NCBI GenBank assembly: GCA_964490395.1
Contig: CAZBAS010000007.1
Location: 7,208-71,207 of the forward strand
Origin: an uncultured Candidatus Saccharibacteria bacterium
Lineage (GTDB): Bacteria > Patescibacteriota > Doudnabacteria > UBA920
Length of the DNA stretch: 64,000 bases
Reading direction: 5' to 3'
Shown here: one piece after another, positions 25,077 through 43,849 of the stretch
How positions within the stretch are numbered: the first letter of the stretch is position 1
Layout of the letters: each line of letters starts with the position of its first letter
Notes under the pieces: generated by a model
Told to the model about the DNA's origin: nothing
Databases searched by the model: none
What the model saw: the letters and a program-made list of their open reading frames with translations, nothing else
Position numbers and translations under genes: made by a program

Positions 25077-27611
25077 TTACCCATTCCGTTCCGGTGGTGG
25101 TTGTCCCTCCGGAGTCGGGCTGGGTGTAGGAGTAGAAGAAGGACCTACAGTCCTTGGGCGTGAACCCAAGGGTGTTGGCGTTGCAGTTGGCGTTGCTGTT
25201 GGTGTGGGTGTTGGAGTTGGCTCACCCTCAACCGGCGTTGGCTCGGGTGTTGGCGTAGGAGTTTCGGCTGGTAGAACAAACTTTGGTTGTTTGCCTTCCA
25301 GAAAATATCCATACACCGGATTTCCGTTTACGTCCGTAGTGTAGGGAGCTTTCACTACACCAGGGACAATGTCCGGAAAGTCACCACCCAAGTCTGGCCT
25401 GGCTGCAAGCGCTTTTTGCAAAAAGTCTACCCAAATGGGTAGTGCAACTTTTGCGCCCGTAGCACCAATGTCCTTGTTGTCGTCTGCGCCAATATAAACG
25501 ACAACTACCAAGTTCGGCGTATAACCCAAGAACCAAGCGTCACGCGACGAACCAGTTTTGCCGGCCGCCATATGCGTGAGGCCCAAAACACCGGCACTGG
25601 CGCCAGTACCGCCTTCCTCAAAGATCCGCTGCATCATTTTGGTCATGATGAACGCTTCTTCGGAAGACAGTACTTGCCCGTAGTCCGTAGTCTTTGGTTC
25701 CAACTTGCTCACGCCAGGGCCAGTTGCTTCGCGGTATAACACCGGTGTAACTGGCTTTCCAGTTACGAACATGGCTGCAGCCCCCGCAATTTGCAGAGGC
25801 GTTACTTCACTGTTGCCAATGAAGCTTGCCCTGTCGGCTCTGGGCTTCGGCATACCAGTTGCTTGAATAAATTCTTGCACTGTACTTATGCCAAGCTCGT
25901 CGCCGATCTTCACTGCTACGTCATTGCTCGATATTTTTAAGGCATCGGGCAAAAACAGGTCGCACTCGCAGTAGCCATGTAAACTTCCGGGCCAGCCACT
26001 TGCTGGTTTGGATTCGCGAATTCGCCGCGCCCAGTTAAATTTGTCCGCGTCTTTGTGCATTGCTGCAGCCCAGAGGAACGGCTTGAACACCGATCCAGGC
26101 TGGCGCTTTGCATTTGTTGCGCGGTTAAACTGGTTAGCAACATAGTCACGCCCTCCTACAAGCGCGAGTACGTCACCGTTGTGGGGGTTAAGCGCCACGA
26201 GCGCGACATTGGGCGTTACCCCTTTGCGCACTCGTGTGTCCACCGTAGCCATCCAATCCTGTACTGCCTGCGTGGCAGCATCTTGGAGTGTCTTGCTGAT
26301 GGTGGACTGGATATGGAGCGATCCTGCCTCGGCAGCGCTCAGATTCTCGTGGTCCTGACGAACACGTGAGTATACAGCGTCGACTGCATATGGCGCATCA
26401 TCGTTGACGTTGCGTTGTTCTTTCGTTTCAAGCGACGTAGATGCAAGCACCTTTGTCGCCTGTTGAGAAATGCGAGATTTTTTCTTTAACTGCATAAGAA
26501 CCTTTCGGCTCTCATCGTTAAAGCTCATCATATCTGTAATTGTCTCGTTACTACGTGCAAGGACTACTTGGGCATTCTTTGTCCAGGGCGCGTAACGTCC
26601 GGGACTCTGAATCATTTGCGCTAGAATGGCAGCTTGCCGTAGACTCAGGTCGCGCACTTCGCAACCAAAGTATACCCACGCTGCCTGCCCGATGCCGCGA
26701 ATCTCCATACCACCATATTGCCCAAAGTAGGCAATGTTGAGATAGTATGTAAAGATTGCATCTTTGTCGGGTATTTCAATTTCTAGAGCAAGTGCGAGCA
26801 GTCCCTCTCGGATTTTGCGCCGATATCTTTTTTCAGGAGTCAGCAGAAGATTTTTAATAATCTGCTGGTCAATCGTGCTTGCGCCTTGCACGCTTTCTCC
26901 TGCCTCGTAGTTCGCGTCTACTGCGCGCATAACGCTCCAGACATCTACGCCCACATGGTCGTAGAATGCCCGGTCTTCGCGGATGAATATGGCATACGCA
27001 ACGTGTGCAGGGACCCAGTTACCTGGTGAGTCTTTTTTGACTTCCGCGTCTACGTGGAATTCCACGAGACGAAAAGCCTTTACGCTTTTGTCGCTGCCAA
27101 CCTCACGGCCAGCAAGTAGCTCAGGAGGCTTGTCGCCTTCCTTTGCAGCGTAGACTCCGGCGGCAATATTTTGCCTTGGAAGACCGTTACGAATGGTCTT
27201 TCTATCTTCTGGCAAAATAAATCCAGCCCAGTAAATCAGAGTGATTGCAATCGCTATCACCACAAGCGTTACTAGGACCATAAGAGTGGTAATGATGTTC
27301 TGAATCAAGCGCTTTCGCTTGAGTTTTTTTGCCAACTCTGCGGCCTTCTGCTTTGCTTCTTCTGACTGAGCAGATTCTTCGCTTAGGCCAGCAAGGTTGT
27401 CGTCTGTGACGACCGTCCTCTTGCTGGTTGGTTTTGGTTTCTTGGCTGGCAAAAGCTTTGCCCACCAAGGTGGTTGTTCTGTTCCTGGTTTTCGCTTTTT
27501 CTTGGTACTAAAAAACATTGAGTACCAAGGTTGTGTGCGCTTCCGTTTTTTACGACTCGAGCGACGTGACGAATAACCAGGCGTAGGTCTTCTATTACTA
27601 TTCCTAATCAT
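25077..27611 (-). CDS. Bifunctional class A penicillin-binding protein (PBP1A; GT51 transglycosylase plus transpeptidase) with a Pro/Thr-rich C-terminal tail
   Basis: The GT51 motifs are QGASTIDQQ and RKIREG. The transpeptidase motifs are SGSVFKP (SxxK), SSN and KTGSS (KTG). A C-terminal PTPTPEPTP... linker follows. Confidence 0.9.
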   Translation of the reverse strand: MIRNSNRRPTPGYSSRRSSRKKRKRTQPWYSMFFSTKKKRKPGTEQPPWWAKLLPAKKPKPTSKRTVVTDDNLAGLSEESAQSEEAKQKAAELAKKLKRKRLIQNIITTLMVLVTLVVIAIAITLIYWAGFILPEDRKTIRNGLPRQNIAAGVYAAKEGDKPPELLAGREVGSDKSVKAFRLVEFHVDAEVKKDSPGNWVPAHVAYAIFIREDRAFYDHVGVDVWSVMRAVDANYEAGESVQGASTIDQQIIKNLLLTPEKRYRRKIREGLLALALEIEIPDKDAIFTYYLNIAYFGQYGGMEIRGIGQAAWVYFGCEVRDLSLRQAAILAQMIQSPGRYAPWTKNAQVVLARSNETITDMMSFNDESRKVLMQLKKKSRISQQATKVLASTSLETKEQRNVNDDAPYAVDAVYSRVRQDHENLSAAEAGSLHIQSTISKTLQDAATQAVQDWMATVDTRVRKGVTPNVALVALNPHNGDVLALVGGRDYVANQFNRATNAKRQPGSVFKPFLWAAAMHKDADKFNWARRIRESKPASGWPGSLHGYCECDLFLPDALKISSNDVAVKIGDELGISTVQEFIQATGMPKPRADRASFIGNSEVTPLQIAGAAAMFVTGKPVTPVLYREATGPGVSKLEPKTTDYGQVLSSEEAFIMTKMMQRIFEEGGTGASAGVLGLTHMAAGKTGSSRDAWFLGYTPNLVVVVYIGADDNKDIGATGAKVALPIWVDFLQKALAARPDLGGDFPDIVPGVVKAPYTTDVNGNPVYGYFLEGKQPKFVLPAETPTPTPEPTPVEGEPTPTPTPTATPTATPTPLGSRPRTVGPSSTPTPSPTPEGQPPPERNG

Positions 27612-27966: not shown

Positions 27967-29094
27967 TTAGTGCAAGGGGCGTGGGGTAATGTAATCCTTA
28001 TCCCTACCCCCCGACATGTTGTAGAACCGCGACTTTACCCCAATGCTTGGTGTAATAGCTGCGAAATCTACTCCATGCGCTGCCCCGTAGACCATGGCTC
28101 CGTGCTTTAACCCATAGGTTTTGAGGTACCGTATGAATTTAGCTAGAGACACGTAGCTTCGCCATTCCACAACAAGACTGTCCTCTATGTCTTGTATGGA
28201 CTTGCCGTTTTCATTGAGACAGGCGTACTTGTGAATTGGGAAAACATTCTCGTGGAGCGGCGGGTCTTCCACCCCTGTTACTCGCCTGTTAAGGTCGCGA
28301 AGCTGCCACTGAAACGGGGCGTAGACCTGCACCTGTTTTTTGATCTTGTTATCGAACTTATCTCGTTCGGTGGGGTCGCTTAGGTTGTACAGACGACCTA
28401 AGGTGGCTATGTAAACGGGCATGCTTTCTTTCTCATCATACCCGCCTTCCATGCCGACTGCCTGAGGTGCAAGCTCCTCCAAACCCTTAAGGATCTTGGT
28501 GTGGCAGGTTGTTAGTTCTTGTATTTCTTTCTCGCTAGACTCGCCAAACGGCGACTCGTGAATCATGAGAAAGAAATCAATCGAAAGTCCTTCTGCCTCG
28601 GAAAGCGCGCTTGTTACTTCGCTCTTTTCGCGATCGTATTCTTTTCTGATTAGCCCAACACTGCTGCCGAACCGTTCATCGTTTCGATACTTCGCCAGGA
28701 GTGCTTCGATGTGGCTTGTAATCTTGTCGAGCCGATTTTTGGTGGCCTTGGTATCCACCTTAGATTCGACTACCAACGCAGCGCCGCTTGTGGTTGCGTT
28801 GATCGAAAGGGGCGGGGTTGATTTGGGGTTGTTCTTTTTTGCTATCACGGGCCTGCTCGAACCCTCTTCTCGCTTCCCTTTTAGGGGTACGAAATAGAGA
28901 AACAGGCAAGTTGTGATTCCCAGGAACATTGCTGTTCCTGAAACAATAAAGATAGTCCGTGAAGTATTTTTCTTTAACCGACGTTGCCGCCGGCTGGACT
29001 TCCTGCCCTTTCCAAAGAATGAGGGTAAGGAGAAAGAAAAGCTTACGCGACGGTTGCGTAACTGCCGACTGCGTCCAGATCTGTGAATTGCCAT
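27967..29094 (-). CDS. Hypothetical membrane-anchored protein (Arg-rich N-terminus, one TM helix, ~300-aa C-terminal domain); weak resemblance to the TraB/GumN/TIKI family
   Basis: A 375-aa product. It has FFLMIHESP and downstream E/H/R residues in a spacing that loosely recalls TraB-family motifs (I could not verify this). Its codon usage is GC3-enriched relative to the core genes. Confidence 0.45.
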   Translation of the reverse strand: MAIHRSGRSRQLRNRRVSFSFSLPSFFGKGRKSSRRQRRLKKNTSRTIFIVSGTAMFLGITTCLFLYFVPLKGKREEGSSRPVIAKKNNPKSTPPLSINATTSGAALVVESKVDTKATKNRLDKITSHIEALLAKYRNDERFGSSVGLIRKEYDREKSEVTSALSEAEGLSIDFFLMIHESPFGESSEKEIQELTTCHTKILKGLEELAPQAVGMEGGYDEKESMPVYIATLGRLYNLSDPTERDKFDNKIKKQVQVYAPFQWQLRDLNRRVTGVEDPPLHENVFPIHKYACLNENGKSIQDIEDSLVVEWRSYVSLAKFIRYLKTYGLKHGAMVYGAAHGVDFAAITPSIGVKSRFYNMSGGRDKDYITPRPLH

Positions 29095-29279
29095 TATGAA
29101 CCCTCCGATTCAGTGGTTTGGCCGGGTAAAATCCGGCTTTTCGTTTGTAATGTACTGTAACCTTGCTAAACGCATTATACGTATAATCATTATATAAGTC
29201 AATAGCTATATATATGCAATATGCTAAATTATCCTTTATATAAGCCATTATATGACACGATGTCTTTGAGCAAATACTA

Positions 29280-29309
29280 TTGACAAATACCGAAATAAAT
29301 GATATAATG
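29280..29309 (+). promoter_or_regulatory. Near-consensus sigma-70 promoter (TTGACA-N18-TATAAT) driving the 29512-32141 operon through a ~200-nt leader
   Basis: TTGACA lies at 29280-29285 and TATAAT at 29304-29309. The leader contains a long-range inverted repeat, GGCATGGCCTTTTTAA ... TTAAAAGGCCATGCG. Confidence 0.6.
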
Positions 29310-29511
29310 TTTTCACAGTACATTGACAACTGAGCTGGAAGTGGCAGGCATGGCCTTTTTAAGCCAAAGAGTGAAACACTATTTTCTCTGGTTTTAAAAG
29401 GCCATGCGGGCCGATACTTGGGAGTACGCACGCGCGGACTCCTAAATTCTTTGCTTCTTGTGACCGCATGGCCACGGAAGTTTAACTTGCAACTCAACCT
29501 GTGGAGGGTAT

Positions 29512-31077
29512 ATGCCAGTGAATCAAATTCAAATTAGCGATGAAACTCGAAAAGCGCAGGCGCGCATTAAACTCGATTTCATCCCCGTTACCTTTACTAC
29601 CGATCTTCAGAAACGCATTACTGCGTTAGTGGCAACGTTCGTTGCTGCTACCGGTATCGAACCGCTTTACAAGACCGCTGCGGGTTGGGCTGCGCAGATC
29701 TATGCTGGTTTAATCCAGCGTGTGCATCCTATCGTCGAAGAAGCGAAGTCAGAAGCCACGGAAGTGGTGGATGGTACGAGCTTTGGAGGCGAAGCCGCAG
29801 TTTACAGAAGCGCGGTTGAAAGCGCGGAAAAGAAGTACCGTGAAAAGGTCAAAAAGGCGTTTAAGAAGGCCTTGGGCAATGACCGCAGCAATTCCCGTAA
29901 GTTGACAGGTCTGAAGGCTGAAAGAACCGAACTCCTCGTTCGCATCAAAGATCAAGTGGTGCGCATGACTGGCGATGAGAATGCCCATATCCGGTCCGAG
30001 AGTAAAATCCTCGAATGGGTTATGAGGTCGGCGTTGCTTGGCTCCTTCTCTACCGTTGAATACTTGCTCGGCTTCGGCGCATATGCATTCTTGGGTAATG
30101 ACCAAATTGCCACCGGCTTTTCCGGCGGCACTGTGCTGGCCATGCTCATCTTGACTATTCTTGCAGGCGAATGTTTTAGCCGTATGTATGCTTATCGGAG
30201 CGCTCTGCGAACTCTCGCGGAGAATTATCCTGATGGCTACTACGACTACGATGACCGTAAGGTTATCATTGTTCGTCCGAGTGAGAAAGTCGAACTCATA
30301 GCGAAGTCTAGTTTACGGGGGCTGATCGGTCTTAGCGTTATTCTGCTCTTGATGCGTATTGTGGTCGCGTTTATGGACCATGAGACGGGGCCAATTGCCA
30401 TCGGCGGCGCACTCATTATGGCCGCGTTGAGCGGTGCATTTCTGCTTGTCGAACTTAAGATCGGCATGCAGTATGACGCCGACGCCTACCGTAAGTGGAA
30501 AGAGCTGAATGACCGCCTGGACGAAGTTGAAGACGGGATTGATGAAATCGAAAATCCGGATCCGGAAGCGCCGGAAGATACGACTGTACAGGATGAATTG
30601 ACCAAAACTTTGACTGTGGCACACGAAGAATATCTGGAAGTGGTCCGCAACCCTGCGGAAACGATTGAAAGGAAAATTCGTGTTGAAGCAGCAAAAGTGG
30701 AGTTCTTCCTGGCTGTGATTGATCGCGTTGCAGAAGCTGGAAAAATGATTGAGGACAAACTGGCTGAGTTGATGGTGTTAATTTGCGAAGCGGTTCTGGC
30801 CAGTAATGCTGGTCTGGATCGGGATGCGATGATACCGAAGCGCAGTCAAGTCCAAAAATTGTTAACCGAAGCAATTGGTGCCTCCTCGGCCTTCAGTGTT
30901 TCTGAAGCGTTGATCGAACGCATGCGGCAGTTCCAACCGCCCACCATTATTTCCCTTGGCTTGCCAGCCGCCATTACCGATTTTGCATTTGTTAATAGCG
31001 AAATCGAAATGGCTGTGCGAGCTGAACTCTTGAATGAAGACCTACAGCAGCCAGTCGCCCTGGCTGAGGACATCTAA
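29512..31077 (+). CDS. Orphan membrane protein (soluble N-terminal domain, four central TM helices, acidic helical C-terminal domain)
   Basis: A 521-aa product with no recognisable motif and an atypical codon signature (AAG, ATC, CCG and GCG preferred). Confidence 0.55.
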   Translation: MPVNQIQISDETRKAQARIKLDFIPVTFTTDLQKRITALVATFVAATGIEPLYKTAAGWAAQIYAGLIQRVHPIVEEAKSEATEVVDGTSFGGEAAVYRSAVESAEKKYREKVKKAFKKALGNDRSNSRKLTGLKAERTELLVRIKDQVVRMTGDENAHIRSESKILEWVMRSALLGSFSTVEYLLGFGAYAFLGNDQIATGFSGGTVLAMLILTILAGECFSRMYAYRSALRTLAENYPDGYYDYDDRKVIIVRPSEKVELIAKSSLRGLIGLSVILLLMRIVVAFMDHETGPIAIGGALIMAALSGAFLLVELKIGMQYDADAYRKWKELNDRLDEVEDGIDEIENPDPEAPEDTTVQDELTKTLTVAHEEYLEVVRNPAETIERKIRVEAAKVEFFLAVIDRVAEAGKMIEDKLAELMVLICEAVLASNAGLDRDAMIPKRSQVQKLLTEAIGASSAFSVSEALIERMRQFQPPTIISLGLPAAITDFAFVNSEIEMAVRAELLNEDLQQPVALAEDI

Positions 31078-31094
31078 GATAAGGAGAGCAAATC

Positions 31095-32141
31095 GTGAGA
31101 AACAGTAGACGTAGTAAACGCAGTGGAAAAGGTAATGGGCGATTGGTGTTACAAATCATCGCTGCGATCATGGGTTTATTGATCGTGGTTGGTGGTATCG
31201 GCTACATCGCTTATCGTCAAATCAAGAGCCATACTGATTATAAAGTTGCCAGTGACGAACAGATGATTGCCCGGGATGCACTCAGTGATGAACATCCCAC
31301 GATCCCATCTTTCTTCACTAAGCCTCTCGTCAAAAAGTTGTATCAAGGCGAAGGGTTTAAGGTGACCTTTGTAGTCAAACATGATCCAAATAATGGCTAT
31401 AAAGACTCAGAGGAAGTCTTTGAAATCCAACCCTGGGAGAAATACCAGGAAACGTTTGTCCGGGTTCGGAGGAACCAGGTGGACGAACAGATTAAGAAGT
31501 TTCCGGAGTTTGTTGAACGCTTTAACGAAGACCGGCCCCGAACCATCCAACTCTACCTCTGTGTCGACGACACAGAAGGGATCAGTACCGGCTTGAAGAA
31601 GCAGGTGACTGAAGAAGTTAAGAGTTGGGATATCGCGGCAAAACTGGCCAAGGGACACACGGTTGAAGTGATTGCGTGGCCACTTAGTGACACGGAATTC
31701 ACTCATAACCAGAAAGTAGTCCTGAAGCCAGACACTGACGATGTCGAGACGAAGCTGAAACCGCTATATACGTTTTTGTTCGGTGAAAAACCGGGCGACG
31801 TACAAGCGACAGCGACGTCCGACATTGCCGGCGGCATTAAGCGAATTGCCAGCGTAGCAGCGGAACATCCAGACCGTCAGTTTCTTTTTTTCGGCGACAG
31901 TCTTCAGAACCACAACGGCGTGCATTTTTACGGCGCTGAGGGAATGAAGATGCTTGAAGAGAAGAATTGGCCAAGTTTAGACAAAACGTTGTTTGACGAC
32001 AAGCTTCCCGCCCTTAAGGATGCCAAAATTGATTGGTTTCCACCACAGGTGGCGGCGAGCGAATCGGCATTGGTTCGTAAATCTTTGACGTATTGGGAAC
32101 ACGTCTTCGCCAAGGCCGGCGCAAAGGCCAAGATTCACTGA
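31095..32141 (+). CDS. Orphan protein with an N-terminal signal-anchor TM helix and a ~310-aa extracytoplasmic domain
   Basis: A 348-aa product starting 18 bp after the upstream gene (operonic) and followed by a terminator. Confidence 0.55.
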   Translation: MRNSRRSKRSGKGNGRLVLQIIAAIMGLLIVVGGIGYIAYRQIKSHTDYKVASDEQMIARDALSDEHPTIPSFFTKPLVKKLYQGEGFKVTFVVKHDPNNGYKDSEEVFEIQPWEKYQETFVRVRRNQVDEQIKKFPEFVERFNEDRPRTIQLYLCVDDTEGISTGLKKQVTEEVKSWDIAAKLAKGHTVEVIAWPLSDTEFTHNQKVVLKPDTDDVETKLKPLYTFLFGEKPGDVQATATSDIAGGIKRIASVAAEHPDRQFLFFGDSLQNHNGVHFYGAEGMKMLEEKNWPSLDKTLFDDKLPALKDAKIDWFPPQVAASESALVRKSLTYWEHVFAKAGAKAKIH

Positions 32142-32146
32142 TAGCA

Positions 32147-32211
32147 AGCGGCGGTAGTTGCAGAAGAGAAATTAAACACTCTTCTTGCGACTACTGCCGC
32201 TGTTTTTTTAT
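32147..32211 (+). terminator. Rho-independent terminator closing the 29512-32141 operon
   Basis: A long imperfect stem AGCGGCGGTAGTTGCAGAAGAG / CTCTTCTTGCGACTACTGCCGCT, followed by GTTTTTTTA. Confidence 0.65.
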
Positions 32212-32261
32212 TTGATAATGTATTTAAAAGCAGCCATGTTATATGGCTGCTTTAAAGTAAA

Positions 32262-35200
32262 TTATTTGAATATTTCTTCTTTTATGCGTTTAGCACGAGG
32301 GGATAGTCTACTTATTTGATTCACAAAGTCATCCAGGAAGGCCATATCTCCCTTGCCGGCATCCTTGGCCTGCTTGAGTGCTCTCAGCGCTGGTTCGTAC
32401 TCTTGATCGGATAGCTGCTTTAACATAACACCCTGTTCAGTTTTGCTTCCAACTACTTCTTTGCGATGCAGGCTTTGTGCGTTAGTAAGGACAGCTGTTT
32501 GTATGCCAGTGAACTCTCGGGGTGTTGGAAGGCGTCGCAAGGTTTGCTCTACTGTTTCATTTATTGGTAGTGGAACTTTCAGCGTATCCGGTTGGCGTAG
32601 GGGTTCGAGGCTAGCACGTTTTGTTTCCGTGTCTATGACAACTGTTTTAATGGCTTTGAGCCTGTCTGAGTAGTCCGTAAGTAGGAGTACTGCTTCGTCC
32701 ATCTCGTCTTCATTTTGTTCTAGGAACCGAGCATCTACTTCGCGTCCTTGAGTGGTAATGCGTAGTGTAAGGTCTGGTCGTATAGATGCCCTAAGCTCGC
32801 CATCCCATTTTTCAAATAGGTTTTCCGCCGGTGGCTTTACTTCTGGTGCAGCTGTCTGCTTAAGTGGTTCTAGTTCTTTTTCTATTTCTGCGCGAGAAGT
32901 GAGCTTGCCAGTGGGCACCCATAGTTCTGCTTTCCCAACGTCTGGGTCTAAATCCAAGCCAGTTTCTTTAGAGCCTACAACGAATACGACTTCAGTCACA
33001 CCGTTTAACAGTCTGGCGTTTTGCGCAACAATTAGTAGGTTTGCTTTTATAATTATTTCATCATTTACCGTCTGTTGCCCCACATCTGGTATGCCCAAAT
33101 TGCCAAATGATAGTTTCGGTAAACCGGGAATTTTGCCCCACTCGGCTAAAGCGCCTGCTTCTATTTGTGCAGCCTTTTCCTTTACCCCCATTTCTACTTC
33201 TTTTGTAAACGGGACCTCAACTATCTTAGCATCTGTTAGTTTGTAGTCAGTAGGGTTTTGGAAAATAACAATTTTGTTTACTCCGCCAGCGGTTTGGGCA
33301 AACTTCTCATATGGTGGTTGTAGGGGGATGTTATTTGTATATGCGTCTCCCTGTTTCCAGGTTTCCTGTGTTATAGACACACCTTTACCGTTGTTACGGT
33401 CCGGTCCCATGGGCATAGTCGTAAAAGCCTGCTCAGCTATCTTACGTATGAACTCAGGGTGCTCGTTCAGGTATTTGCTCAACTCTTCGTACGTACTTTT
33501 GTTCACGATAACTTCCGTGAAGAGCTCCTGCCCACCACGTGTACTGTAGTCTTGATAGGCGTGTTCGTTCTGCGCACCTGGAGCTGTTACAAAATAACCA
33601 ATACGGTATGCTACTTCTGCTCCTGCTTTTTGTTTATTATATTGGCTTAAAGGAGTGTTGCCCGCTACTTTTTCCAGTGTGATAAATTCATGCAGGCTTT
33701 TATCGTTGGCCGCTAGTTCGCGCAGTGGACTTACATATGCGATGGAGGGATAGCGCTTGGCATCTGCCCTATTTTCTCCGAATGTTCCCACGAACCCAGC
33801 CGAACCTTCGGGGTGATAGTGCTGGGGTAAGCTGGTATACACTAAGTTAGCCGCGTTTTCAGGCTTCGCGAGGAGCTCAAGCAGTCTCTGCTCTTTTGCT
33901 TCTTTGGTCTCAGCCTGTTCTGCTGCTGCCACTGCTGGTTGCTTGGCTTCCGGTGTCGTTGTATTTCCAGCTCCAAACACAGTATCCAAGTCTGCAGCAG
34001 TGATCTCTCGAGTTGCGGGGATAAATAGTGTACTCGCAAGACGAATAACAGAGGTTTCTTCAAAGTCTATGTTTATTGTGGAAATGGTGCTTATTTCTTT
34101 TCTGCCGCCCAGCTGACCAAGGTTTGCTTCTATAGTTGCAACATTGAGCGCGACTTGTGTGTAGTTATATTGATTTTTATTAGGGGTAGGATCACCCACT
34201 TTTTTATTTGCAATATATTCTTGGTATCCTTGTCCAAACGCCCACACTATATCTATTCCCGGGCGCGCCTGTTTCCATGTTTGCGTTATGCGGCCAGCAG
34301 CTGCCATGCCCACTCCGCTTTCCCGCATAAAATCTGGTATGGCATGTTCGGCCGCAGATTGGGCTGTCTCTGGTGGTTTCGATGCGGGAGGTACTGCTTG
34401 GTGTTTGGTAGGCGTTGATTGTGTGGTTGCCTTAGGAGAAGCTCCAGATATGATTTGCTCAAGAGCTTGTTCCTCAATGGCGTTTCTACAGGGGACAACG
34501 AGTGTATCTCCTTCTTCATGCAATGTTGCTCGCTCTTGCAGATCTAACTGAACCAGTCTGTACTTGCCTAGACCTGCTTTATTCTTTACAAGTAAGCCCA
34601 CGTTTATATCTATATCGCTTTCATGTTCAGCGACTAGCGCTAAATTATATACTCGCTCGTTTGGTAGTTTGCCTGCCGTAGCCTTGGCTGTTAACTCCGC
34701 ATATCCAGTAGTGTCATATTGCGTTTTAAGAGCGGCTGGCATGGTTTCAGTTTTCCATAACTCCACTACCCTTGAAACAATCATAGTTCCTTTGCCCGCC
34801 TCAGTAAGGTATTCGGTTACTTCTTTTTCGGGTGCGATATTTTTTTTACTAACTGGTTTGCTGGAGGGGGTGATTTTACTGCTCTTCTTTTTTGGTGCAG
34901 TCCCTTCTAACTCGGTGAGTATTTCTTCAGCTCGTTGTCTGCCGTTTTCATTTAGGCTTACCCGGTATATGAGGGCCTCGTTGGACGGTACTCTTTTCCA
35001 TCCCCATACCCTCCCCCAAGATTCACGGTTTTGTTCATCTATCCACTTCAAAAATTCCGCGCTGCTATTCCCCGGTTGCACTTCACGGTTCGCTCTGTCG
35101 TTCATTATATTTTCTGCCGCCCACATTGTTCTTTGGGGCTTAGGCATGCCTTCTACATCATATGGTTTTGCCAGGAGTGGGTTCCATTCAGGACGAGCTG

Positions 35201-35306
35201 CTTCCGTTTCGAGCTTGCTTTGTCTTCGGGTCTGTGGTGGTTTTTCGGGTTGTTGGTCTCTTTCTGGTTGCGCGGTAGGGTACCAATCGGCGCCTCTTCT
35301 TATCAT
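32262..35306 (-). CDS. Large (1014 aa) hydrophilic orphan protein with no TM helix, no signal peptide and no recognisable catalytic motif
   Basis: A single uninterrupted ORF with core-like AT-rich codon usage. It contains a Lys/Glu/Thr-rich linker (residues ~280-330) and a Pro-rich N-terminus. Confidence 0.6.
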   Translation of the reverse strand: MIRRGADWYPTAQPERDQQPEKPPQTRRQSKLETEAARPEWNPLLAKPYDVEGMPKPQRTMWAAENIMNDRANREVQPGNSSAEFLKWIDEQNRESWGRVWGWKRVPSNEALIYRVSLNENGRQRAEEILTELEGTAPKKKSSKITPSSKPVSKKNIAPEKEVTEYLTEAGKGTMIVSRVVELWKTETMPAALKTQYDTTGYAELTAKATAGKLPNERVYNLALVAEHESDIDINVGLLVKNKAGLGKYRLVQLDLQERATLHEEGDTLVVPCRNAIEEQALEQIISGASPKATTQSTPTKHQAVPPASKPPETAQSAAEHAIPDFMRESGVGMAAAGRITQTWKQARPGIDIVWAFGQGYQEYIANKKVGDPTPNKNQYNYTQVALNVATIEANLGQLGGRKEISTISTINIDFEETSVIRLASTLFIPATREITAADLDTVFGAGNTTTPEAKQPAVAAAEQAETKEAKEQRLLELLAKPENAANLVYTSLPQHYHPEGSAGFVGTFGENRADAKRYPSIAYVSPLRELAANDKSLHEFITLEKVAGNTPLSQYNKQKAGAEVAYRIGYFVTAPGAQNEHAYQDYSTRGGQELFTEVIVNKSTYEELSKYLNEHPEFIRKIAEQAFTTMPMGPDRNNGKGVSITQETWKQGDAYTNNIPLQPPYEKFAQTAGGVNKIVIFQNPTDYKLTDAKIVEVPFTKEVEMGVKEKAAQIEAGALAEWGKIPGLPKLSFGNLGIPDVGQQTVNDEIIIKANLLIVAQNARLLNGVTEVVFVVGSKETGLDLDPDVGKAELWVPTGKLTSRAEIEKELEPLKQTAAPEVKPPAENLFEKWDGELRASIRPDLTLRITTQGREVDARFLEQNEDEMDEAVLLLTDYSDRLKAIKTVVIDTETKRASLEPLRQPDTLKVPLPINETVEQTLRRLPTPREFTGIQTAVLTNAQSLHRKEVVGSKTEQGVMLKQLSDQEYEPALRALKQAKDAGKGDMAFLDDFVNQISRLSPRAKRIKEEIFK

Positions 35307-35381
35307 ATAAGTATCAAATTATTCACTAAAATCATTATAGCGGTTTGGAGGTGTTTGAACAAAATGTACCCCGATACCCTT

Positions 35382-37013
35382 TTAGAGGCCAACTTTGTAA
35401 ATTTTAAGCTCAGCGTTTTGATATATATTTTTTAAATAGTCGCGTTCTTCAAAAGCAGCGCTGGACCATGAAGAGACTTCGCTATCTATAATAAGGTAAT
35501 CTATGCCATTCATTTTGCAGAAAGTTTTGAGGGGATCGCTCTGGTTTGGCTCCGTGACTAGCACCCTTCTAAGCAACGTGTATTTAGCGTAATAAAATGC
35601 AGTTTGGTCTCCGTGGCCTATATATACTGTTTGTCCGGTTGTACCAGGGATTATATTTCCAAGGTTTGAACCAGTAGCAACTATGCTCCTAGACGGGGTG
35701 TTTGTTTTCAGCCAGTCTAAAGCTTCATGTTCTGAGGAGGGTATATAGTACGGCTGTGTATTTGTTTGGAAGGCCTGTACGTCTTGCCATGCAATACGGA
35801 GATTACCATATGAAAATAATAAAATAATGGCTATGGCAGTTGTGTACCGTAAATATGTGAATCTAATTTTTAAAATTATATCCCACAGTATATATCCAGC
35901 CATTATGGCAAGAGGAATGTGCAGCCCCAGAATTAGCTTTCTTTGGAACGTAATTTGTAGGGGTGCGTATACAAGCATGAGTAGCGCACCTGCCCAAAGA
36001 GCACAAAATAAAATATATTTGTTGCTAGTTTCGTGTTTAATCCAAGCAAAGAAAGCAAAGGGGAGTAGGGGCGCATATGTTTGTATGAGGGGTAAAAGTG
36101 GTGGCGCTGGCCGCGGAGGCTGCATGTTAAACCATAGGCCGAAAGCTTCGTTGTGGCTAATAACGTATCCTTGCCAGAGTATCGCCGGAAGGGTCAACAG
36201 AGTAAGGTGCATGAAATGTTTTATTGTCCCAAGATTTCGGTTGGAAAAGGCTTGGTATACAACGTACAATCCTAGTACGCTAAAGATAGAAATAATGTCA
36301 TATGGATGTACAAGGATAATCGCGTTACACAATAGTGCTTCTATGGCCAATCGTTTCTTAGAAAACGCGGTATCGTTTTTTAGGAATGATGCGTATAGTA
36401 GCAACATGAGTAGCATCGCGCTTATATTTAGCACTGACTCATAGAGCGACAAGAAAGTAACCGCTTCTGTCATCCATGTATCCAGGGAAACGTTTGAATG
36501 GGTGATCCAACCTAGACCAGACGAAGTTGCTACTAGGGCCCAGATAAACCATGATCGAGATGTTGTAAGGACGAACCTTTTTATAAATATATAGAGGGAA
36601 GTAAGAAATGCTGTTCCAAGAAGAATGCGGGCAATATTGTACCAAATAATATTTGGTAAAGATATGATTTTTGCTACAAGGCCTATTACTAAGAAAATAG
36701 GATGAAATAGTCGAGGCCCATTATTCTCCGTTGTATATAGTGGGGCGAATAATATGTGTCCTTGTCTCCCTTGCTCAATCCATGCCAGGTAACTATAAGT
36801 ATCTCCCTGGTTAATGCGGTGAACGCCTGTAAACGATCCAGGGTGTGAACGCATTGCGCCATATATATAGGGTAAGGAAATTATTACCATGGCTATTAAC
36901 GACGTTGTTACTAGCAAGATCGTACTCCTGTTTTTGGTGTATAGAGATGAGAACATGTGGTGATTATAACAAAAAAGAGCGGGTCCTTTACGCTGAGCTA
37001 TAAATAGCTTCAC
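35382..37013 (-). CDS. Polytopic membrane protein (at least 12 TM helices), possibly a GT-C-like glycosyltransferase, with a C-terminal soluble domain
   Basis: A 543-aa product whose hydrophobic helices span the first ~400 aa, followed by a C-terminal ~100-aa domain. It is not obviously related to the 17564 and 23439 paralogs. Confidence 0.5.
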   Translation of the reverse strand: MKLFIAQRKGPALFCYNHHMFSSLYTKNRSTILLVTTSLIAMVIISLPYIYGAMRSHPGSFTGVHRINQGDTYSYLAWIEQGRQGHILFAPLYTTENNGPRLFHPIFLVIGLVAKIISLPNIIWYNIARILLGTAFLTSLYIFIKRFVLTTSRSWFIWALVATSSGLGWITHSNVSLDTWMTEAVTFLSLYESVLNISAMLLMLLLYASFLKNDTAFSKKRLAIEALLCNAIILVHPYDIISIFSVLGLYVVYQAFSNRNLGTIKHFMHLTLLTLPAILWQGYVISHNEAFGLWFNMQPPRPAPPLLPLIQTYAPLLPFAFFAWIKHETSNKYILFCALWAGALLMLVYAPLQITFQRKLILGLHIPLAIMAGYILWDIILKIRFTYLRYTTAIAIILLFSYGNLRIAWQDVQAFQTNTQPYYIPSSEHEALDWLKTNTPSRSIVATGSNLGNIIPGTTGQTVYIGHGDQTAFYYAKYTLLRRVLVTEPNQSDPLKTFCKMNGIDYLIIDSEVSSWSSAAFEERDYLKNIYQNAELKIYKVGL

Positions 37014-37076
37014 GTAAATTTCTCGCTCTCAGTTTTCCCTCCCTGCTCCTCCTGCAGGGTTGTTTGGTCGCGCACG

Positions 37077-38432
37077 TTATTTGTGCACGATCCGGATTGT
37101 CACATGGAATCCGCCAGAGTTGTTTCCGTCGGAATATCCATGCAGTGATTCAATGATGCGGAGCGTTGGCACGCCCGCCTCTTTGGCCGATTGATTAAAC
37201 CGCGACCCAACAAAGTACCGGCTTGTGTCTTTGTTGGTGCCGATCCACATCTCCAAGCCTCCGATGTGGGCGGTGAATGGGCTGTCTACGCTGGGGTCGC
37301 GGTAGGCTGACCTCTCGCCTTCGGGGCTCACAGGACCGCGGCCAATGTTGGCCGTGCCTGTTGCCTCAATGCTGAGTTCGTCGCCTACTTTAAGCTTCAG
37401 CTCTTCGCCGCTCGCGGTGACCAGCTTGACGCCTTCCGCAACAACGGGGACGTCGGCTGACCATGATCCATCAGCGTTTTTGGTGACTTTGGCTTGTACA
37501 TCTGGAAGCGTGCTGCCACGTCCAGAAGTGGAAGAGGATTCCTTTGTCCAGCTAAACCAGCCATGGCGATAGGCGTACAACCCAGCCAAGACCAGCCCGA
37601 GTAACATTGCCGCTATTACCACGTGGTTTCGCGTCAACTTAAAACTGAACTTCAACCCTTTTCCAGCGCGTTCGCCCATCATGTAGCGGATCAGGAACCT
37701 GGCCGCATACAGGATGATTGCCAAGCCAATGAGGACTCGGAGCCACCAATATGGGTTTGTGTAGTTTGCTGCCCGTTCCCACTCGTCCCAGTGGTATATC
37801 CAACCAAACAACTTGCCGTTGGTTATAGCATCAACCACCAGGAAAATTGTCAGCAGGACCTGGCTGCCCAGCGCCAAGCGTTGCAGTGCCTTTAGCCAGA
37901 AGCCATCCGCTTTGAATGCAATCGCCATTATGCCGGCAATAAGCGAGGCCAAGATGATGACTGCAAACTTCATTGGGTGTTCATGCAGCGGTGTGAGCGC
38001 TGTGATCTCCAAGAGAAGTCCGAAGAGTGCGAACAGGGCGATAAACGTCGTTATGAACGAGTCCCTCTGCTCCACGGTTACCCACGGATCAGATGCCTTT
38101 TGTTCACCCGGCGCGATTTCACGAACGGCGTCCACGCCTGTGCGGAGAGCTTTCTCTGCAGCCGTGAAAAGCGCTGCAAGAAAACCTAACTGCAAGGTCG
38201 CCGCATATGCACCCAGCATGATCATTATTGAAGCGCCAATCATCACGAAGTAACCAAAGCTGTGAGAGTACCAGTCTGAGGCCATCCCTCCCAGATAGAC
38301 GGCAAAAAAGAAAGCCGGCCATCCGTAGAGGAAGATCATGAGGCGGCCAAGGTGGTACTGTAGTTCGCGCTGGGCATCCAGGACTCTTTCCTGTGTCCAA
38401 AAGAAGAAGAATTGTAGGTAGTCTTTCGGCAT
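37077..38432 (-). CDS. Orphan membrane protein (~8 TM helices) with a C-terminal ~170-aa beta-rich extracytoplasmic domain
   Basis: A 451-aa product with GC3-enriched codon usage. It is the last gene of a three-gene minus-strand operon, 40001 to 37077. Confidence 0.5.
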   Translation of the reverse strand: MPKDYLQFFFFWTQERVLDAQRELQYHLGRLMIFLYGWPAFFFAVYLGGMASDWYSHSFGYFVMIGASIMIMLGAYAATLQLGFLAALFTAAEKALRTGVDAVREIAPGEQKASDPWVTVEQRDSFITTFIALFALFGLLLEITALTPLHEHPMKFAVIILASLIAGIMAIAFKADGFWLKALQRLALGSQVLLTIFLVVDAITNGKLFGWIYHWDEWERAANYTNPYWWLRVLIGLAIILYAARFLIRYMMGERAGKGLKFSFKLTRNHVVIAAMLLGLVLAGLYAYRHGWFSWTKESSSTSGRGSTLPDVQAKVTKNADGSWSADVPVVAEGVKLVTASGEELKLKVGDELSIEATGTANIGRGPVSPEGERSAYRDPSVDSPFTAHIGGLEMWIGTNKDTSRYFVGSRFNQSAKEAGVPTLRIIESLHGYSDGNNSGGFHVTIRIVHK

Positions 38433-38441
38433 GTTTCCCCT

Positions 38442-39230
38442 TTAGGACCCTTGAATAAGGGCCCGGATGATGAGCACAATAATTGAGCCGAACCCGATTC
38501 CGAGAACGACCCCCCAGTAGAGGATTCTGAACCACAGCGGCGCTGTGGGCGCAGAGAGCCTCTGGCCAGGAAGTAAGGTTTCGGGTTGTAGGTGGAAGAG
38601 CTGAGCCAGGGTTGGCCGGTTGCGAAGACGATCCAGTTTTGCGGCAATGCGGGCCTCGCGGACCACATTCGCATCGCGGACTGCAGTCTCGCCGAATTCG
38701 CGGACTGCATCCAAGATACGTTCTGACATCGTGAGGTCAGCACAACCGGTACTGGCCAGTAAGGCCAAGCGTTCGGTGTCGTCCTCACAAAGTAGAAGTG
38801 CAGCAATTTCGTCGCTGCGGTGATTTTCGTCGGCGATACGGAAGTGGCGTTTCAGATACTTTTTCCTCATCCGGGTCACGGCTTCATCCGTGCTCGCGAG
38901 AAAGAAAATGGTATCATTTAACCGTGCCACGCCCGCAGGGCCATCAAGGTCCTCATGCAAACGTTCCAGTTGCTTACGCACCTGGCCCAAATCACGCAGA
39001 AACAATGCTCCTTCAGCAGTCATGCCCAATTTATCATCTTGCATGGTCATGATGCGCTGCGCTGCTCGAACATCGCCCTCTTCCAGTTTCTTCTGGGCAG
39101 CACCCACGACGGCTTCAGCGCCTTTGCCTTCCGCAAAGAGTGCATGAACCGCTGTGTTCGCCGTAAATTCGGACATGAAGTGTTTGGCCACGTCCCAGCC
39201 CTCATCAATAATCTTTTGAACTGTCGGCAT
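38442..39230 (-). CDS. Orphan helical protein with a single C-terminal TM helix (tail-anchored topology)
   Basis: A 262-aa product with the C-terminus LWFRILYWGVVLGIGFGSIIVLIIRALIQGS. It ends 9 bp upstream of the next gene. Confidence 0.5.
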   Translation of the reverse strand: MPTVQKIIDEGWDVAKHFMSEFTANTAVHALFAEGKGAEAVVGAAQKKLEEGDVRAAQRIMTMQDDKLGMTAEGALFLRDLGQVRKQLERLHEDLDGPAGVARLNDTIFFLASTDEAVTRMRKKYLKRHFRIADENHRSDEIAALLLCEDDTERLALLASTGCADLTMSERILDAVREFGETAVRDANVVREARIAAKLDRLRNRPTLAQLFHLQPETLLPGQRLSAPTAPLWFRILYWGVVLGIGFGSIIVLIIRALIQGS

Positions 39231-39239
39231 AGCTCTCTC

Positions 39240-40001
39240 CTATGAGTACTTGAGGTCAAGGATGACCGGTTGATCGTTGGGGTGAAGCACAGTAAGCTGT
39301 GTTTCGTTCACCCTAAAGAATTTTAAGCGGATAGTTTCAATGCCCGCTGCTGGTGTAAATTTCCAACTCGCGACCGCGAATTTCTCTTGGGTCGCTGGCG
39401 GGGTTGGTGGTACACGCGTGATGGGTGTGCCGTCGGCTGCCTGCATTACGAACTTGGCCCCACAACTAATTTCGACTTCCTCGGGGTTTTGGTCACCAGC
39501 GGCATTCGCCGTTTTAATGGTGAGTAAGAACCAGGGGTTGCCGCCACTAATTGCGGTTTTGCCAGTAACTGTAACGCGCGACTTCTTGGACGTTGCCACG
39601 CTCACAGTCCCTGCGGGTGCAGGCGGAGCCTTTGGGATTTCGAGCGCTTTCGATGTAACGTTGTCTACGTCCTCCCGCGCGCAGATGTGCGTGAAAGGAG
39701 CGCCAGACAAGTTAACGGTGACAGAACCCCAGCCCCGGTTGTTAGTGCTGATAGTCACTGGAGCATCCGGCGTGGTGCCTTTCGTAAGCTGTATGTCAAA
39801 CGCGTCAGCAGTCTCATCGTTCCCCAGATAGAGTTTGACATTTTTCACGGCAAGCCCTTTATTTCCTTTCCTTGTTTTTATTCTCAAGGTTAATTTAGTG
39901 GGGTCCTTGCCGATAATCTCAAAATCAATCGCCTCTCGGCTCTGCTGGGCCTGTTGACCAGGTTTCTTTCCGTTGGGCTGTTTGCCTTTATCGTCGGCCA
40001 T
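39240..40001 (-). CDS. Orphan protein, predicted beta-sandwich-like, with a Lys/Gln-rich N-terminus
   Basis: A 253-aa product. It is the first gene of the minus-strand operon; an AT-rich promoter region lies upstream at 40002-40600. Confidence 0.5.
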   Translation of the reverse strand: MADDKGKQPNGKKPGQQAQQSREAIDFEIIGKDPTKLTLRIKTRKGNKGLAVKNVKLYLGNDETADAFDIQLTKGTTPDAPVTISTNNRGWGSVTVNLSGAPFTHICAREDVDNVTSKALEIPKAPPAPAGTVSVATSKKSRVTVTGKTAISGGNPWFLLTIKTANAAGDQNPEEVEISCGAKFVMQAADGTPITRVPPTPPATQEKFAVASWKFTPAAGIETIRLKFFRVNETQLTVLHPNDQPVILDLKYS

Positions 40002-40262
40002 AGCTTGCTTCTCCTTTCAAGAGAAATTGTTTACGGTTTACGCAAGCTATGCCAACAGGCATTTGCTGCGCGCTGGTATATGATTTATAACTATTTAGTT
40101 GTAAAAGAGCGCGAAACACGGACAATTGTCCGCTGGTAGGTGGATTAAGAATTATCCTACCAGATATATGGCTTACATAAGCCATAAGTCTCATAGGGCA
40201 ATTCGTGTATTCATTTGAAACAACATTATAGTATATTATTGCAAATATGTCAATATATAGGT

Positions 40263-40300
40263 ATACATAAACTCTGCTTAATTAAGCAGAGTTTATGTAT
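40263..40300. promoter_or_regulatory. 38-bp perfect palindrome (ATACATAAACTCTGCTTAA|TTAAGCAGAGTTTATGTAT) in the divergent region between the orphan operon and the pilin-like array
   Basis: It is exactly self-complementary over 19+19 bp and no U-tract follows. A second 9+9 palindrome, TATGGCTTA-CAT-AAGCCATA, sits at ~40166-40186. Confidence 0.6.
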
Positions 40301-40599
40301 ATTATTGTGTTGGTGTATGCGCCAAAATAGAGCATAAATAAGCCTTGCATAGACTTAGCATTGTATCTTCCTTGTCTTGGTCTGGCTCTGCTCGGCTCAC
40401 TGTTCCGTTTCGACGTGCTATCTATATATAGCCATAAGTATGAACCATTATTTTCACCTCCCAGATTTCATATGGGTCCTACAGAACTAATCCCATATCA
40501 TTTCTACAATTTGTCTTTAAGTTTCGAGAGTCATTTACTGTACGCATGGAATATGTTCTGGTATAATTTTTTTAAAGGCAGTTTACTTTAAGAAACCAA

Positions 40600-41073
40600 A
40601 TGCTTAAAAAAATAAATTGGAAATTTGTTCGGTATCTGCTCGCATCGGTTGTGGTCGCTGTTGCGTTGTATGCTCCTATGGCGCATGCCGCAATAGTTAA
40701 TTGCGGCAATCAAGACGGGGGAGATGCAAAAGATGGGTGTAAGTTTAGTGACCTGTTTACCAGCGCAACAAATTTAATAAATTATTTTTTGAGTGGCGCT
40801 GCTGTTGTGGCGGTAGGTGGAGTAGTATATGGTGGTTTTCTCATGGTTACGTCTGCGGGCAATGCAAGCAAACAGGGTGCTGGTAAGAAAGCAGTTACGA
40901 ATTCGCTCATTGGCCTCGGGGTTATACTTGTGTCGTTTCTGCTCATAAAGAGTGTGTTTGTAATTCTTGGCTTTAAAGGTGGCGCAGATCCTTTGCAGAA
41001 CCCAACGCAATTTATAAATGGCCAGAGTGGAAACTTAATAGACTCTGGTGTGCCGAGCGGCGGAGGGAAATAA
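40600..41073 (+). CDS. Pilin-like array member 1: signal peptide, a short Cys-containing ectodomain, and the C-terminal VirB2/TrbC-like two-helix domain
   Basis: The C-terminus is VVAVGGVVYGGFLMVTSAGNASKQGAGKKAVTNSLIGLGVILVSFLLI (hydrophobic helix, polar loop TSAGN..K.G.K, hydrophobic helix). Confidence 0.6.
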   Translation: MLKKINWKFVRYLLASVVVAVALYAPMAHAAIVNCGNQDGGDAKDGCKFSDLFTSATNLINYFLSGAAVVAVGGVVYGGFLMVTSAGNASKQGAGKKAVTNSLIGLGVILVSFLLIKSVFVILGFKGGADPLQNPTQFINGQSGNLIDSGVPSGGGK

Positions 41074-41115
41074 GTTCGTTAATGCATTTTCTAAAAATAA
41101 ACTAAACAAGCTATC

Positions 41116-41967
41116 ATGACATTTAAAAAATTATCTATTATTAGTAACTCCATAGCCTTGCTCGTAAGCCTTGCTACAGTGGCATCTGTATGGAGCGCAC
41201 CTGCATTTGCCGCTGGGTGTGATCCAGATATATATTTTTCAATTACCGACCCAGTAACTGGCAACATTGTTACGCAAGCTCCTCAAAATGGTAAAGTTAC
41301 GTTTTATGTAAAACTTACTCCGAAGGGTGACTGCTCGACCACGGTAATAAACGATGTAGTAATAAATCAGCGTCTTACCAATGGAATCACCTTTTTGGCA
41401 AATTTTCCTATTTCTGATAAAAACGGATTGCGACGAGGGGTTGTTGAATCTAAATATACCCAGGGCGTAGATGGGATCCTCGACACCACGACGGGTAAGC
41501 CAGTACAAGTTGGTGGGAAGTTGTCGCTTGAAGGGGCCGTCAAATTAGAGGGTGAAGATAAATACCGTAATTCAAGTCCCACGCCACTTGCTGCGGTTGC
41601 TGCTGTTCCTGGCGGAGGTGGTGGAGATGTGAATGCGCCAAACGTAAACACCCCTGGTGGAAACGTAAACACCCCCGGTGGCGATCCTAGTACTGTAGGC
41701 ACTATTGGTACCATCTCAAACCCTATTGGCTATGAGTCTTTGGGTGCGCTTGTGGTGGCCATTATCCGTTTTCTACTTACTATGATTGGTGGTCTTGCCG
41801 TGCTGTTCATTATTATAGGTGCGGTGCGCATGGTTACCTCTCAAGGTAATGAAAAGGCCGTTACTGCTGGTAAGCAAACTGTTACCTGGGCAGTCATAGG
41901 TCTTATTACTGCACTCATGGCGTTCTCGCTCATTAGTTTGGTCCAGAGTTTAATAGGGCGTAAGTAG
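41116..41967 (+). CDS. Pilin-like array member 2: signal peptide, a beta-rich ectodomain with NVNTPGG repeats, and the conserved C-terminal domain
   Basis: The C-terminus is LLTMIGGLAVLFIIIGAVRMVTSQGNEKAVTAGKQTVTWAVIGLITALMAF. Confidence 0.6.
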   Translation: MTFKKLSIISNSIALLVSLATVASVWSAPAFAAGCDPDIYFSITDPVTGNIVTQAPQNGKVTFYVKLTPKGDCSTTVINDVVINQRLTNGITFLANFPISDKNGLRRGVVESKYTQGVDGILDTTTGKPVQVGGKLSLEGAVKLEGEDKYRNSSPTPLAAVAAVPGGGGGDVNAPNVNTPGGNVNTPGGDPSTVGTIGTISNPIGYESLGALVVAIIRFLLTMIGGLAVLFIIIGAVRMVTSQGNEKAVTAGKQTVTWAVIGLITALMAFSLISLVQSLIGRK

Positions 41968-41997
41968 AAGCGACACTAATCAACGAATTTCACACGA

Positions 41998-43843: not shown

Positions 43844-43849
43844 AAATGT

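Follow-up and report, generated by a model that had tools for sequence, protein, structure and literature searches.

A predicted mosaic protein of 1014 amino acids with a rare repeat scaffold and a domain widespread in Patescibacteria

A stretch of 64,000 nucleotides (the window) from an uncultured Candidatus Saccharibacteria bacterium, assigned in GTDB to Doudnabacteria (UBA920) within the Patescibacteriota, was analyzed (GenBank assembly GCA_964490395.1, contig CAZBAS010000007.1, positions 7,208 to 71,207 of the forward strand). The subject is the 1014-amino-acid product of the open reading frame (ORF) at 32262-35306 on the minus strand, here called P0001 or g1014. P0001 is a lineage-restricted mosaic, in which a rare repeat scaffold is combined with a domain widespread in the Patescibacteria. 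We tentatively read it, with slightly less than even confidence, as an adaptor specific to this lineage, which would remain in the cytoplasm and bear a copy of this conserved domain. The gene is genuine, as it is intact in a second assembly, shows coding periodicity and has a syntenic relative. The product is very probably functional, in line with the view in an earlier note on this DNA, made from the sequence letters, that proteins of this size are rarely functionless; P0001 has kept every one of the 12 residues that are invariant in the domain family.

The central domain and its family

The exhaustive search with phmmer (HMMER), made against 1.84 billion cluster representatives (50%-identity clusters), found 50 proteins, including the 611-amino-acid orthologue P0002 (E = 6e-56, 26-31% identity to P0001) and 48 members of a domain family (P0003-P0050, E 6e-17 to 7e-4). 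A word-indexed (k-mer) search of 5.8 billion proteins returned only P0001 itself, and a single protein when the domain alignment was used as the query. No described homologue of P0001 was found in a literature search. With one syntenic orthologue and a central domain common to about 48 other proteins, P0001 is, as judged from these matches, not the true orphan that the earlier note had taken it for.

The family match covers a predicted central globular domain at approximately amino acids 456-705 of P0001 (33192-33941, minus strand), which is not present in P0002. The domain corresponds to the C-terminal ~250 residues of the family members, most of which are about 400-450 amino acids long, with 23-33% identity across its whole length. 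In reciprocal tblastn searches, 21 of the 22 other members of an alignment of 23 domain sequences (alignment A2, to be kept apart from module A2 below) matched the window at 33192-33941 with E-values from 1e-26 to 2e-12. P0001 contains 12 of the 12 invariant positions of this alignment (TSLP, the G of 'GF', E, Y, R-x-G, P-x-F-x-R, W-x-x-G and PP) and most of the near-invariant ones, two of which differ (P147N and W214F). The motifs of the family read TSLPxxYHPxGxxGF ... YxDYSxRxGQ ... PxFIR ... WxxGDxxTN..PLxPPYE.

None of 38 full-length family members had a Pfam match to the domain, none of 28 had a credible NCBIfam match, the family has no counterpart among the PHROGs, and the profile of alignment A2 gave nothing below E = 0.1 against PDB sequences. 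AlphaFold2, run on the same alignment, predicts an alpha/beta domain with seven strands and about eight helices, at a predicted local distance difference test score (pLDDT) of 86.4 and a predicted template modelling score (pTM) of 0.86. Of the checks that the earlier note had proposed, structure prediction gave a confident model of the central domain, and a Foldseek search with it found no structural relative in PDB or BFVD (TM-score at most 0.28).

Family members were identified in Saccharimonadales (L002), Staskawiczbacteria (L003), a Patescibacteria group (L005) and other metagenome-assembled genomes of Patescibacteria. Their neighbours in the loci examined are housekeeping genes (MetRS and TatD; ThyX, dCTP deaminase, L1 and NusG; a methyltransferase and MurC; TrmD), and an all-versus-all comparison of 16 family loci revealed no recurrent neighbour gene. 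All 49 relatives, that is the 48 family members and P0002, are hydrophilic, and none has a signal peptide or a transmembrane helix. The simplest reading is that the family represents a cytoplasmic domain that is conserved across Patescibacteria lineages.

P0001 resembles P0003-P0050 in its hydrophilic character, in the lack of a signal peptide and transmembrane helix, and in the 12 invariant positions. Unlike P0001, the family members have an N-terminal helical region of their own of ~150-200 amino acids, whereas the domain in P0001 is placed in the middle of an unrelated 1014-amino-acid scaffold and lacks a ~40-residue middle insert that most family members have, so that P0001 belongs to the family at the domain level only. 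A kinship between the N-terminus of the scaffold and the N-terminal region of the ~420-amino-acid family proteins was considered and rejected, as the N-terminal profile of the family matches neither P0001 nor P0002. The domain is also found in longer proteins of 600-1000 amino acids. The sole informative fusion found for the family is P0039 (L017 236-3235), a member of 999 amino acids with a C-terminal FtsK-gamma winged-helix DNA-binding domain (E = 1e-19), the gene of which is followed by trmD.

The scaffold and the orthologue P0002

Outside the central domain, P0001 consists of an N-terminal region, two A modules, a B module and a basic C-terminal region, and this scaffold was found in just one other 50%-identity cluster among the 1.84 billion representatives. 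The internal repeats were detected by Smith-Waterman alignment with shuffles and by a module profile, and were missed in a BLASTP self-comparison. The conserved N-terminal region (amino acids 30-135; 34902-35219, minus strand) aligns to amino acids 15-122 of P0002 (shuffle z = 19). Module A1 (amino acids 161-291; 34434-34826, minus strand) and its tandem duplicate A2 (amino acids 321-447; 33966-34346, minus strand), which was recognized from shuffled alignments and the module profile, are each about 125 amino acids long (A1 versus A2, z = 15.8). They are separated by a linker rich in P, S, T, K and A at approximately amino acids 292-320, and both have counterparts in P0002, with a z of up to 36, the value for A1. 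Module B (amino acids 823-931; 32514-32840, minus strand) is shorter but shares the core of the A modules, a helix, a 'V.ID' strand, a 'TL.(I/V)P' strand and a helix, and aligns to the B module of P0002 with z = 27.5. The profile E-values of 2e-55 for A1 and 6e-36 for B are circular, since both modules were included when the profile was built, and serve to delimit the modules only. The module-alignment profile matched nothing in the PDB below E = 0.1.

The region between the central domain and module B (amino acids 706-822; 32841-33191, minus strand) is unique; a weak alignment with P0002 is confined to its final ~65 residues. The possibility that it represents a partial module was ruled out, as z was at most 1.5 and there was no profile match to A or B. 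The C-terminal region (amino acids 932-1014; 32265-32513, minus strand) ends in RLSPRAKRIKEEIFK and is conserved in P0002, where the corresponding end is RMSSKAQRIKQEVFGS. Both ends of the protein are basic, with a pI of 9.5 for the N-terminal 160 residues and 9.4 for the C-terminal 86 residues, and the part in between is acidic. Over the last 30 residues, P0001 has a net charge of +2 and P0002 of 0. The units are separated by disorder-prone linkers rich in P, S, T, K and A.

P0002 is encoded by a 69.8-kb Logan contig (SRR22250823_2801, here L001) that is syntenic with the window. Equivalents of four membrane-operon genes of the window (g253, g262, g451 and g543) precede the P0002 gene, and equivalents of the convergent genes g348 and g521 come after it; ComM, GalU-type and solute-binding genes are also located nearby in the comparison of the two sequences. 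Like P0001, P0002 contains the N-terminal region, both A modules, module B and the basic C-terminal region, is encoded by the last gene after the same membrane-protein operon, converges with the same gene pair, and has a TATAAT box and no Shine-Dalgarno (SD) sequence. Unlike P0001, it lacks the central domain. The alignment pairs amino acids 30-443 of P0001 with 15-420 of P0002, and 756-1013 with 356-609, which leaves ~310 residues of P0001 (444-755), the central domain and ~50 further residues, with no counterpart. Counted up to module B (approximately residues 444-822), the extra segment of P0001 comprises ~380 residues, with the domain as its core. A GT2 glycosyltransferase gene is located directly upstream of the P0002 gene in L001 only. 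The identity between the window and L001 is 57-70% for housekeeping proteins and 26-44% for the proteins of the block that contains P0001, which shows that this region evolves fast.

Properties of the gene and its product

The ORF is complete, with an ATG start and a TAA stop, and its product has a mass of 112 kDa and a pI of 5.6. An uninterrupted frame of 1014 codons would arise by chance with a probability of ~1e-24 at this composition. The G+C contents of the three codon positions (GC1 0.585, GC2 0.414, GC3 0.400) show a strong periodicity, a contrast that is as expected for coding DNA, and the uninterrupted 3-kb ORF described in the earlier note is thus well founded. A Logan assembly (L021, run SRR12487046) is 100% identical to the window over positions 32926-37873 (4,948 bp), which correspond to amino acids 1-793, and thus confirms, from a source other than the deposited contig, the open frame and the two junctions of the central segment. 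An antisense ORF of 248 amino acids extends across the 5' part of the gene (34564-35310, plus strand) and is most likely a shadow ORF.

P0001 is hydrophilic (grand average of hydropathy -0.56). Neither a transmembrane helix nor a signal peptide is predicted in a 19-residue hydropathy scan, because the highest value is only 1.27, and the N-terminus is polar (MIRRGADWYPTAQPERDQQ). The motif scan revealed no Walker A, HExxH, GxSxG, CxxC, LPXTG, lipobox or transmembrane anchor, and the protein contains a single Cys. Three DxD tripeptides are present, which is by estimate about the number expected by chance, and they are not conserved where P0002 aligns. On these points, the absence of a signal peptide and transmembrane helix and of a P-loop or other catalytic signature, the result is the same as in the earlier note. 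There was no match to Pfam or NCBIfam (E <= 0.01), PHROGs or PDB sequences, and homologues were likewise absent from the viral (IMG/VR), phage (GenBank) and plasmid (PLSDB) collections. P0001 thus fails the tests for Sec/Tat-secreted proteins, lipoproteins, sortase-anchored proteins, mobile-element proteins and the common catalytic families (P-loop NTPases, zincins, GT-A and serine hydrolases).

Expression signals and codon composition

A candidate promoter, TTGTTC-17 nt-TATAAT, was recognized by its match to the consensus at 35334-35362 (minus strand), in the 75-bp spacer after g543. It ends 27 nt before the ATG, and no SD sequence precedes the gene; in P0002, a TATAAT is placed 7 nt before the ATG. 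A candidate intrinsic terminator, read from the sequence, starts 9 nt past the stop codon and consists of an 11-bp hairpin, AAAGCAGCCAT-ATAAC-ATGGCTGCTTT, followed by a T/A-rich tail (32226-32253, minus strand). It was not listed in a simple terminator scan, where its T-run was too short. The P0001 gene therefore appears to be its own transcription unit, with a predicted promoter and terminator. On the plus strand, right after g348, there is a long GC-rich hairpin followed by T7ATTT (32147-32211), and the two hairpins form back-to-back terminators between the convergent genes.

The genes of the window fall into two classes. In one of these (g253, g262, g451, g521, g348 and g375), the genes are led by strong SD sequences and GC3 is 0.53-0.64. 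The other, which comprises most of the housekeeping genes together with g543 and g1014, has no SD sequence and often a TATAAT box close to the start; GC3 is ~0.40-0.50 in the housekeeping genes and 0.39-0.40 in g543 and g1014. The earlier note's statement of native codon usage agrees with the GC3 of 0.40, which is inside the housekeeping range, although the correlation of relative synonymous codon usage (RSCU) with the housekeeping genes, 0.35, is somewhat below the 0.45-0.79 found among the housekeeping genes themselves. The same split, seen in the window at 27967-32141 and 37077-40001, is also present in L001 at 4296-7554 and 12098-14720, where GC3 in the SD class is 0.53-0.66. Because the split is also present in these orthologues, it is an old, maintained property and not a sign of recent import.

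The membrane operon and the variable block

Four genes on the same strand, g543, g451, g262 and g253, are located upstream of P0001 at 35382-40001 (minus strand) and are conserved in L001. Because both genes are on the minus strand, the membrane-protein gene at 35382-37013 lies 5' of the P0001 ORF, the reverse of the order given in the earlier note. The g253 product is soluble and by eye beta-rich, that of g262 has one C-terminal transmembrane peak, that of g451 is polytopic with a C-terminal soluble domain, and that of g543 is polytopic, with eight peaks, two of them overlapping, in a crude hydropathy scan with a strict threshold, as against the 12 transmembrane segments given in the earlier note. 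The soluble domain of g451 (37077-38432, minus strand) is ~150 amino acids long and ends in ...GYSDGNNSGGFHVTIRI. In another sequence (L022, 768-2747), a g451 homologue with 31% identity is apparently fused, as seen by eye, to a g262-like N-terminal helical region in a protein of 659 amino acids.

Homologues of g451 and g543 are also present in L022, which has no P0001 homologue; in two genomes other than L001 and L024, the gene that comes after the pair encodes a membrane protein of the g541/g515 type and not a P0001 homologue. By these comparisons, the membrane-protein operon is the more widespread unit and diverges rapidly, and the P0001/P0002 gene has been added to its 3' end in a lineage-specific manner. 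The window itself contains three genes for polytopic membrane proteins of 515-543 amino acids (17564-19111, 23439-25064 and 35382-37013, all on the minus strand). Both g515 and g541 match the same genes in L001 and L019 with 31-33% identity, a g515/g541 homologue is located directly 3' of the g543 homologue in other genomes, and two g543 homologues carry PF20176. In L019 and at the P0060 locus, a gene for a VirD4/TrwB-like ATPase is placed two to four genes upstream of the g543 homologue. A link from P0001 to this ATPase by way of the upstream membrane protein was considered and set aside, as those loci do not contain a P0001 homologue.

On the other side of the operon, five consecutive genes at 40600-44722 (plus strand) encode divergent PF18895 VirB2-like pilins of 157, 283, 248, 162 and 290 amino acids, the third of which also has a peptidoglycan-binding domain. 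Pfam scans of the ORFs of the window revealed no VirB4, VirB6 or VirD4. The divergent intergenic region contains a perfect sigma-70 consensus, TTGACA-17-TATAAT, that faces g253 (40253-40225, minus strand), and an adjoining palindrome with a 20-bp stem toward the pilin array (40260-40303); together, these may constitute a shared regulatory site (40225-40303).

The window also contains tRNAs and genes for FtsK, RecA, FtsH, SMC, RNase III, RNase Y, TrmD and a penicillin-binding protein (PBP) of the PBP1 type, and its superoxide dismutase is in the same 90%-identity cluster as one labelled Candidatus Doudnabacteria. The PBP1-type gene (25077-27611, minus strand) is 57% identical to its counterpart in L001 (1519-3810); in L001 it is the head of the membrane operon, beside a pilin gene, and in the window it is on the far side of the convergent pair, a difference in position that indicates a local rearrangement. 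A gene at 53400-57212 (plus strand) encodes another large protein, of 1270 amino acids, that contains an F5/8 type C (discoidin, carbohydrate-binding) domain and is probably surface-related; its conserved counterpart in a close relative, L024, has 1283 amino acids.

A close relative, GCA_964648985.1 (L024), shows 73-84% nucleotide identity to the window from position 40550 rightwards, through the pilin array, which there has six genes, and FtsH, RNase III, SMC and beyond. The synteny breaks at approximately window position 40550 and L024 position 4880. To the left of its pilin array, L024 has a different gene content, in which BLAST detects nothing similar to the stretch from g253 to g1014. 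A PBP of another kind (25% identity) and small unrelated genes are located there, and a 229-amino-acid protein of L024 compares with g253 only marginally (z about 3). The ~18 kb of the window to the left of the breakpoint are thus not found at the same position in L024. No relative of g1014 or g543 with an identity between 40% and 99% was found in databases in which proteins of GCA_964648985.1 are represented. The whole block that contains P0001 is patchily distributed. The earlier note had described the flanks of the gene as foreign operons; they do differ in composition from the rest and belong to a block that is missing at the same place in the close relative, but recent import does not fit the finding that the distant L001 has the same compositional pattern and gene order.

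Possible cellular roles of P0001

Under the reading that we tentatively favor, P0001 would be expressed as its own unit, from a TATAAT-type promoter, with no SD sequence and with a hairpin terminator, and would stay in the cytoplasm. Through its scaffold modules, which would determine a new location or partner (possibly the membrane machinery specified by the adjacent genes), the protein would serve as an adaptor and bring a binding or catalytic activity of the central domain there. The main basis for this reading is that the domain family is cytoplasmic and housekeeping in character, to which the fusion of one member to an FtsK-gamma DNA-binding domain also points.

Several observations weigh against it. 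The block is missing at the same place in a close relative with 73-84% nucleotide identity beyond the breakpoint, it adjoins a five-gene pilin array, and P0001 and P0002 have diverged fast (26-31% identity, as compared to 57-70% for the housekeeping proteins); these three features would also fit a protein that is exported or interacts with a host. Substrates of type IV secretion can do without a signal at the N-terminus. The scaffold model is poor, as AlphaFold2 on the full-length protein as a single sequence gave a pLDDT of 35 and was unusable, and the adaptor mechanism is only what we infer. Furthermore, with two orthologues at hand, an insertion in P0001 and a loss in P0002 fit equally well.

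VirB2-like pilin arrays have been described for Patescibacteria, especially Saccharimonadia and Microgenomatia, and in the cultured Saccharibacterium Southlakia epibionticum they belong to a type IV secretion system (T4SS) that is essential for epibiotic growth (PMC12102498, PMC10633639, PMC12857230). It has been proposed that the T4SS of Saccharibacteria "may instead export proteins" (PMC10633639, PMC12102498, PMC12857230). The literature search found no substrate of a Patescibacteria T4SS, and none is named in PMC12857230, PMC12102498 or PMC10633639. Among 116 genes enriched in Patescibacteria, 73 proved essential in the one species of the group that is genetically tractable (PMC10633639).

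The best-surviving alternative, although an unlikely one, is that P0001 is exported as a substrate of a T4SS or by another non-classical route, is recognized through its basic C-terminal region, and acts on the host bacterium, or inside it, in the course of epibiotic growth. The gene is located ~5 kb from the five pilin genes in a block that varies between close relatives, and the product would not need a Sec signal for this route. Its fast divergence, modular repeats and disordered linkers, and the conservation of the basic tail in P0002, are also in line with such a role, as is the VirD4/TrwB-like ATPase gene that precedes homologues of the upstream membrane protein in two other genomes. However, the loci linked to VirD4 have no P0001 homologue, the Pfam scans of the window ORFs found none of VirB4, VirB6 and VirD4, the net charge of the last 30 residues is just +2 and falls to 0 in P0002, no effector, adhesin or toxin domain was detected, and the only widely conserved part of the protein belongs to a family that looks cytoplasmic and housekeeping-like. 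For the earlier note's suggestion of a secreted effector, a toxin or a cell-contact component, the support is circumstantial (the pilin array next door, the fast evolution and the basic C-terminus), and against it stands the conserved part, which is that of a soluble family with no signal. Even more doubtful is the specific proposal that P0001 is a Patescibacteria T4SS substrate from a hypervariable block by a pilin array, which is delivered to the host and carries a housekeeping-type domain of a previously unseen fold.

It is also improbable that P0001 is a component of a conflict system (anti-phage, anti-host-defence or self/non-self) on a variable island, with the repeat modules as sensors and the central domain as the effector. 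The gene is patchily distributed, present here and in a distant relative, and orthologues of g1014 or g543 above 40% identity were not found in the databases searched; it evolves fast and its neighbourhood is full of unannotated genes. However, none of the known defence-type domains, such as a nuclease, an NTPase or a protease, is present, the phage, plasmid and IMG/VR collections hold no homologues, and the genes of the domain family have stable housekeeping surroundings that share no recurrent partner. The notion that P0001 is an evolutionary accident, a recent near-neutral fusion or insertion that has no specific function and is decaying, would accommodate a scaffold known from two clusters only, a central segment that is not in P0002 and a modest RSCU correlation of 0.35, but is highly improbable for a frame that stays open over 3 kb, retains all the invariant and most near-invariant domain residues, is joined in frame to either end of the extra segment, with the same junctions in a second assembly, and keeps 26-31% identity in its scaffold over a large evolutionary distance.

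Comparison with known systems

Many unannotated proteins of this kind are encoded by the genomes of Patescibacteria. By the tests run here, P0001 cannot be placed in any described kind; it is new in the sense of being unclassifiable, and no new mechanism is demonstrated. Like PAS, GAF and LuxR-type domains, which provided the top Foldseek hits (RhlR, 8dq0_C, and LOV/GAF domains), the central domain is mixed alpha/beta with an antiparallel sheet packed by helices. Such a fold was rejected, as the hits had E-values of at least 3.5e-3, TM-scores of at most 0.28, where the test asked for at least 0.5, and root-mean-square deviations of 7-17 Å. A compact domain of 250 residues that is confidently modelled, occurs in several Patescibacteria lineages and has no relative in Pfam, NCBIfam, PDB or Foldseek searches offers a well-defined object for structural and genetic studies. 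P0001 shows that this domain is portable, as it is found in a ~420-amino-acid form, in forms of 600-1000 amino acids, in a fusion with FtsK-gamma, and in a repeat scaffold by a pilin array.

P0001 differs from the substrates of VirB/D4-type T4SSs in that it has no secretion signal of a defined class and no effector or chaperone-binding domain, and in that VirB4 and VirD4 are not found in the window. The likeness to these substrates is one of resemblance only, in that they too are large, hydrophilic, modular and fast-evolving proteins with no Sec signal, with a basic C-terminus and with pilin genes nearby. If it is true that the scaffold is a device for export or localisation, P0001 would offer a handle on how epibionts deal with their hosts.

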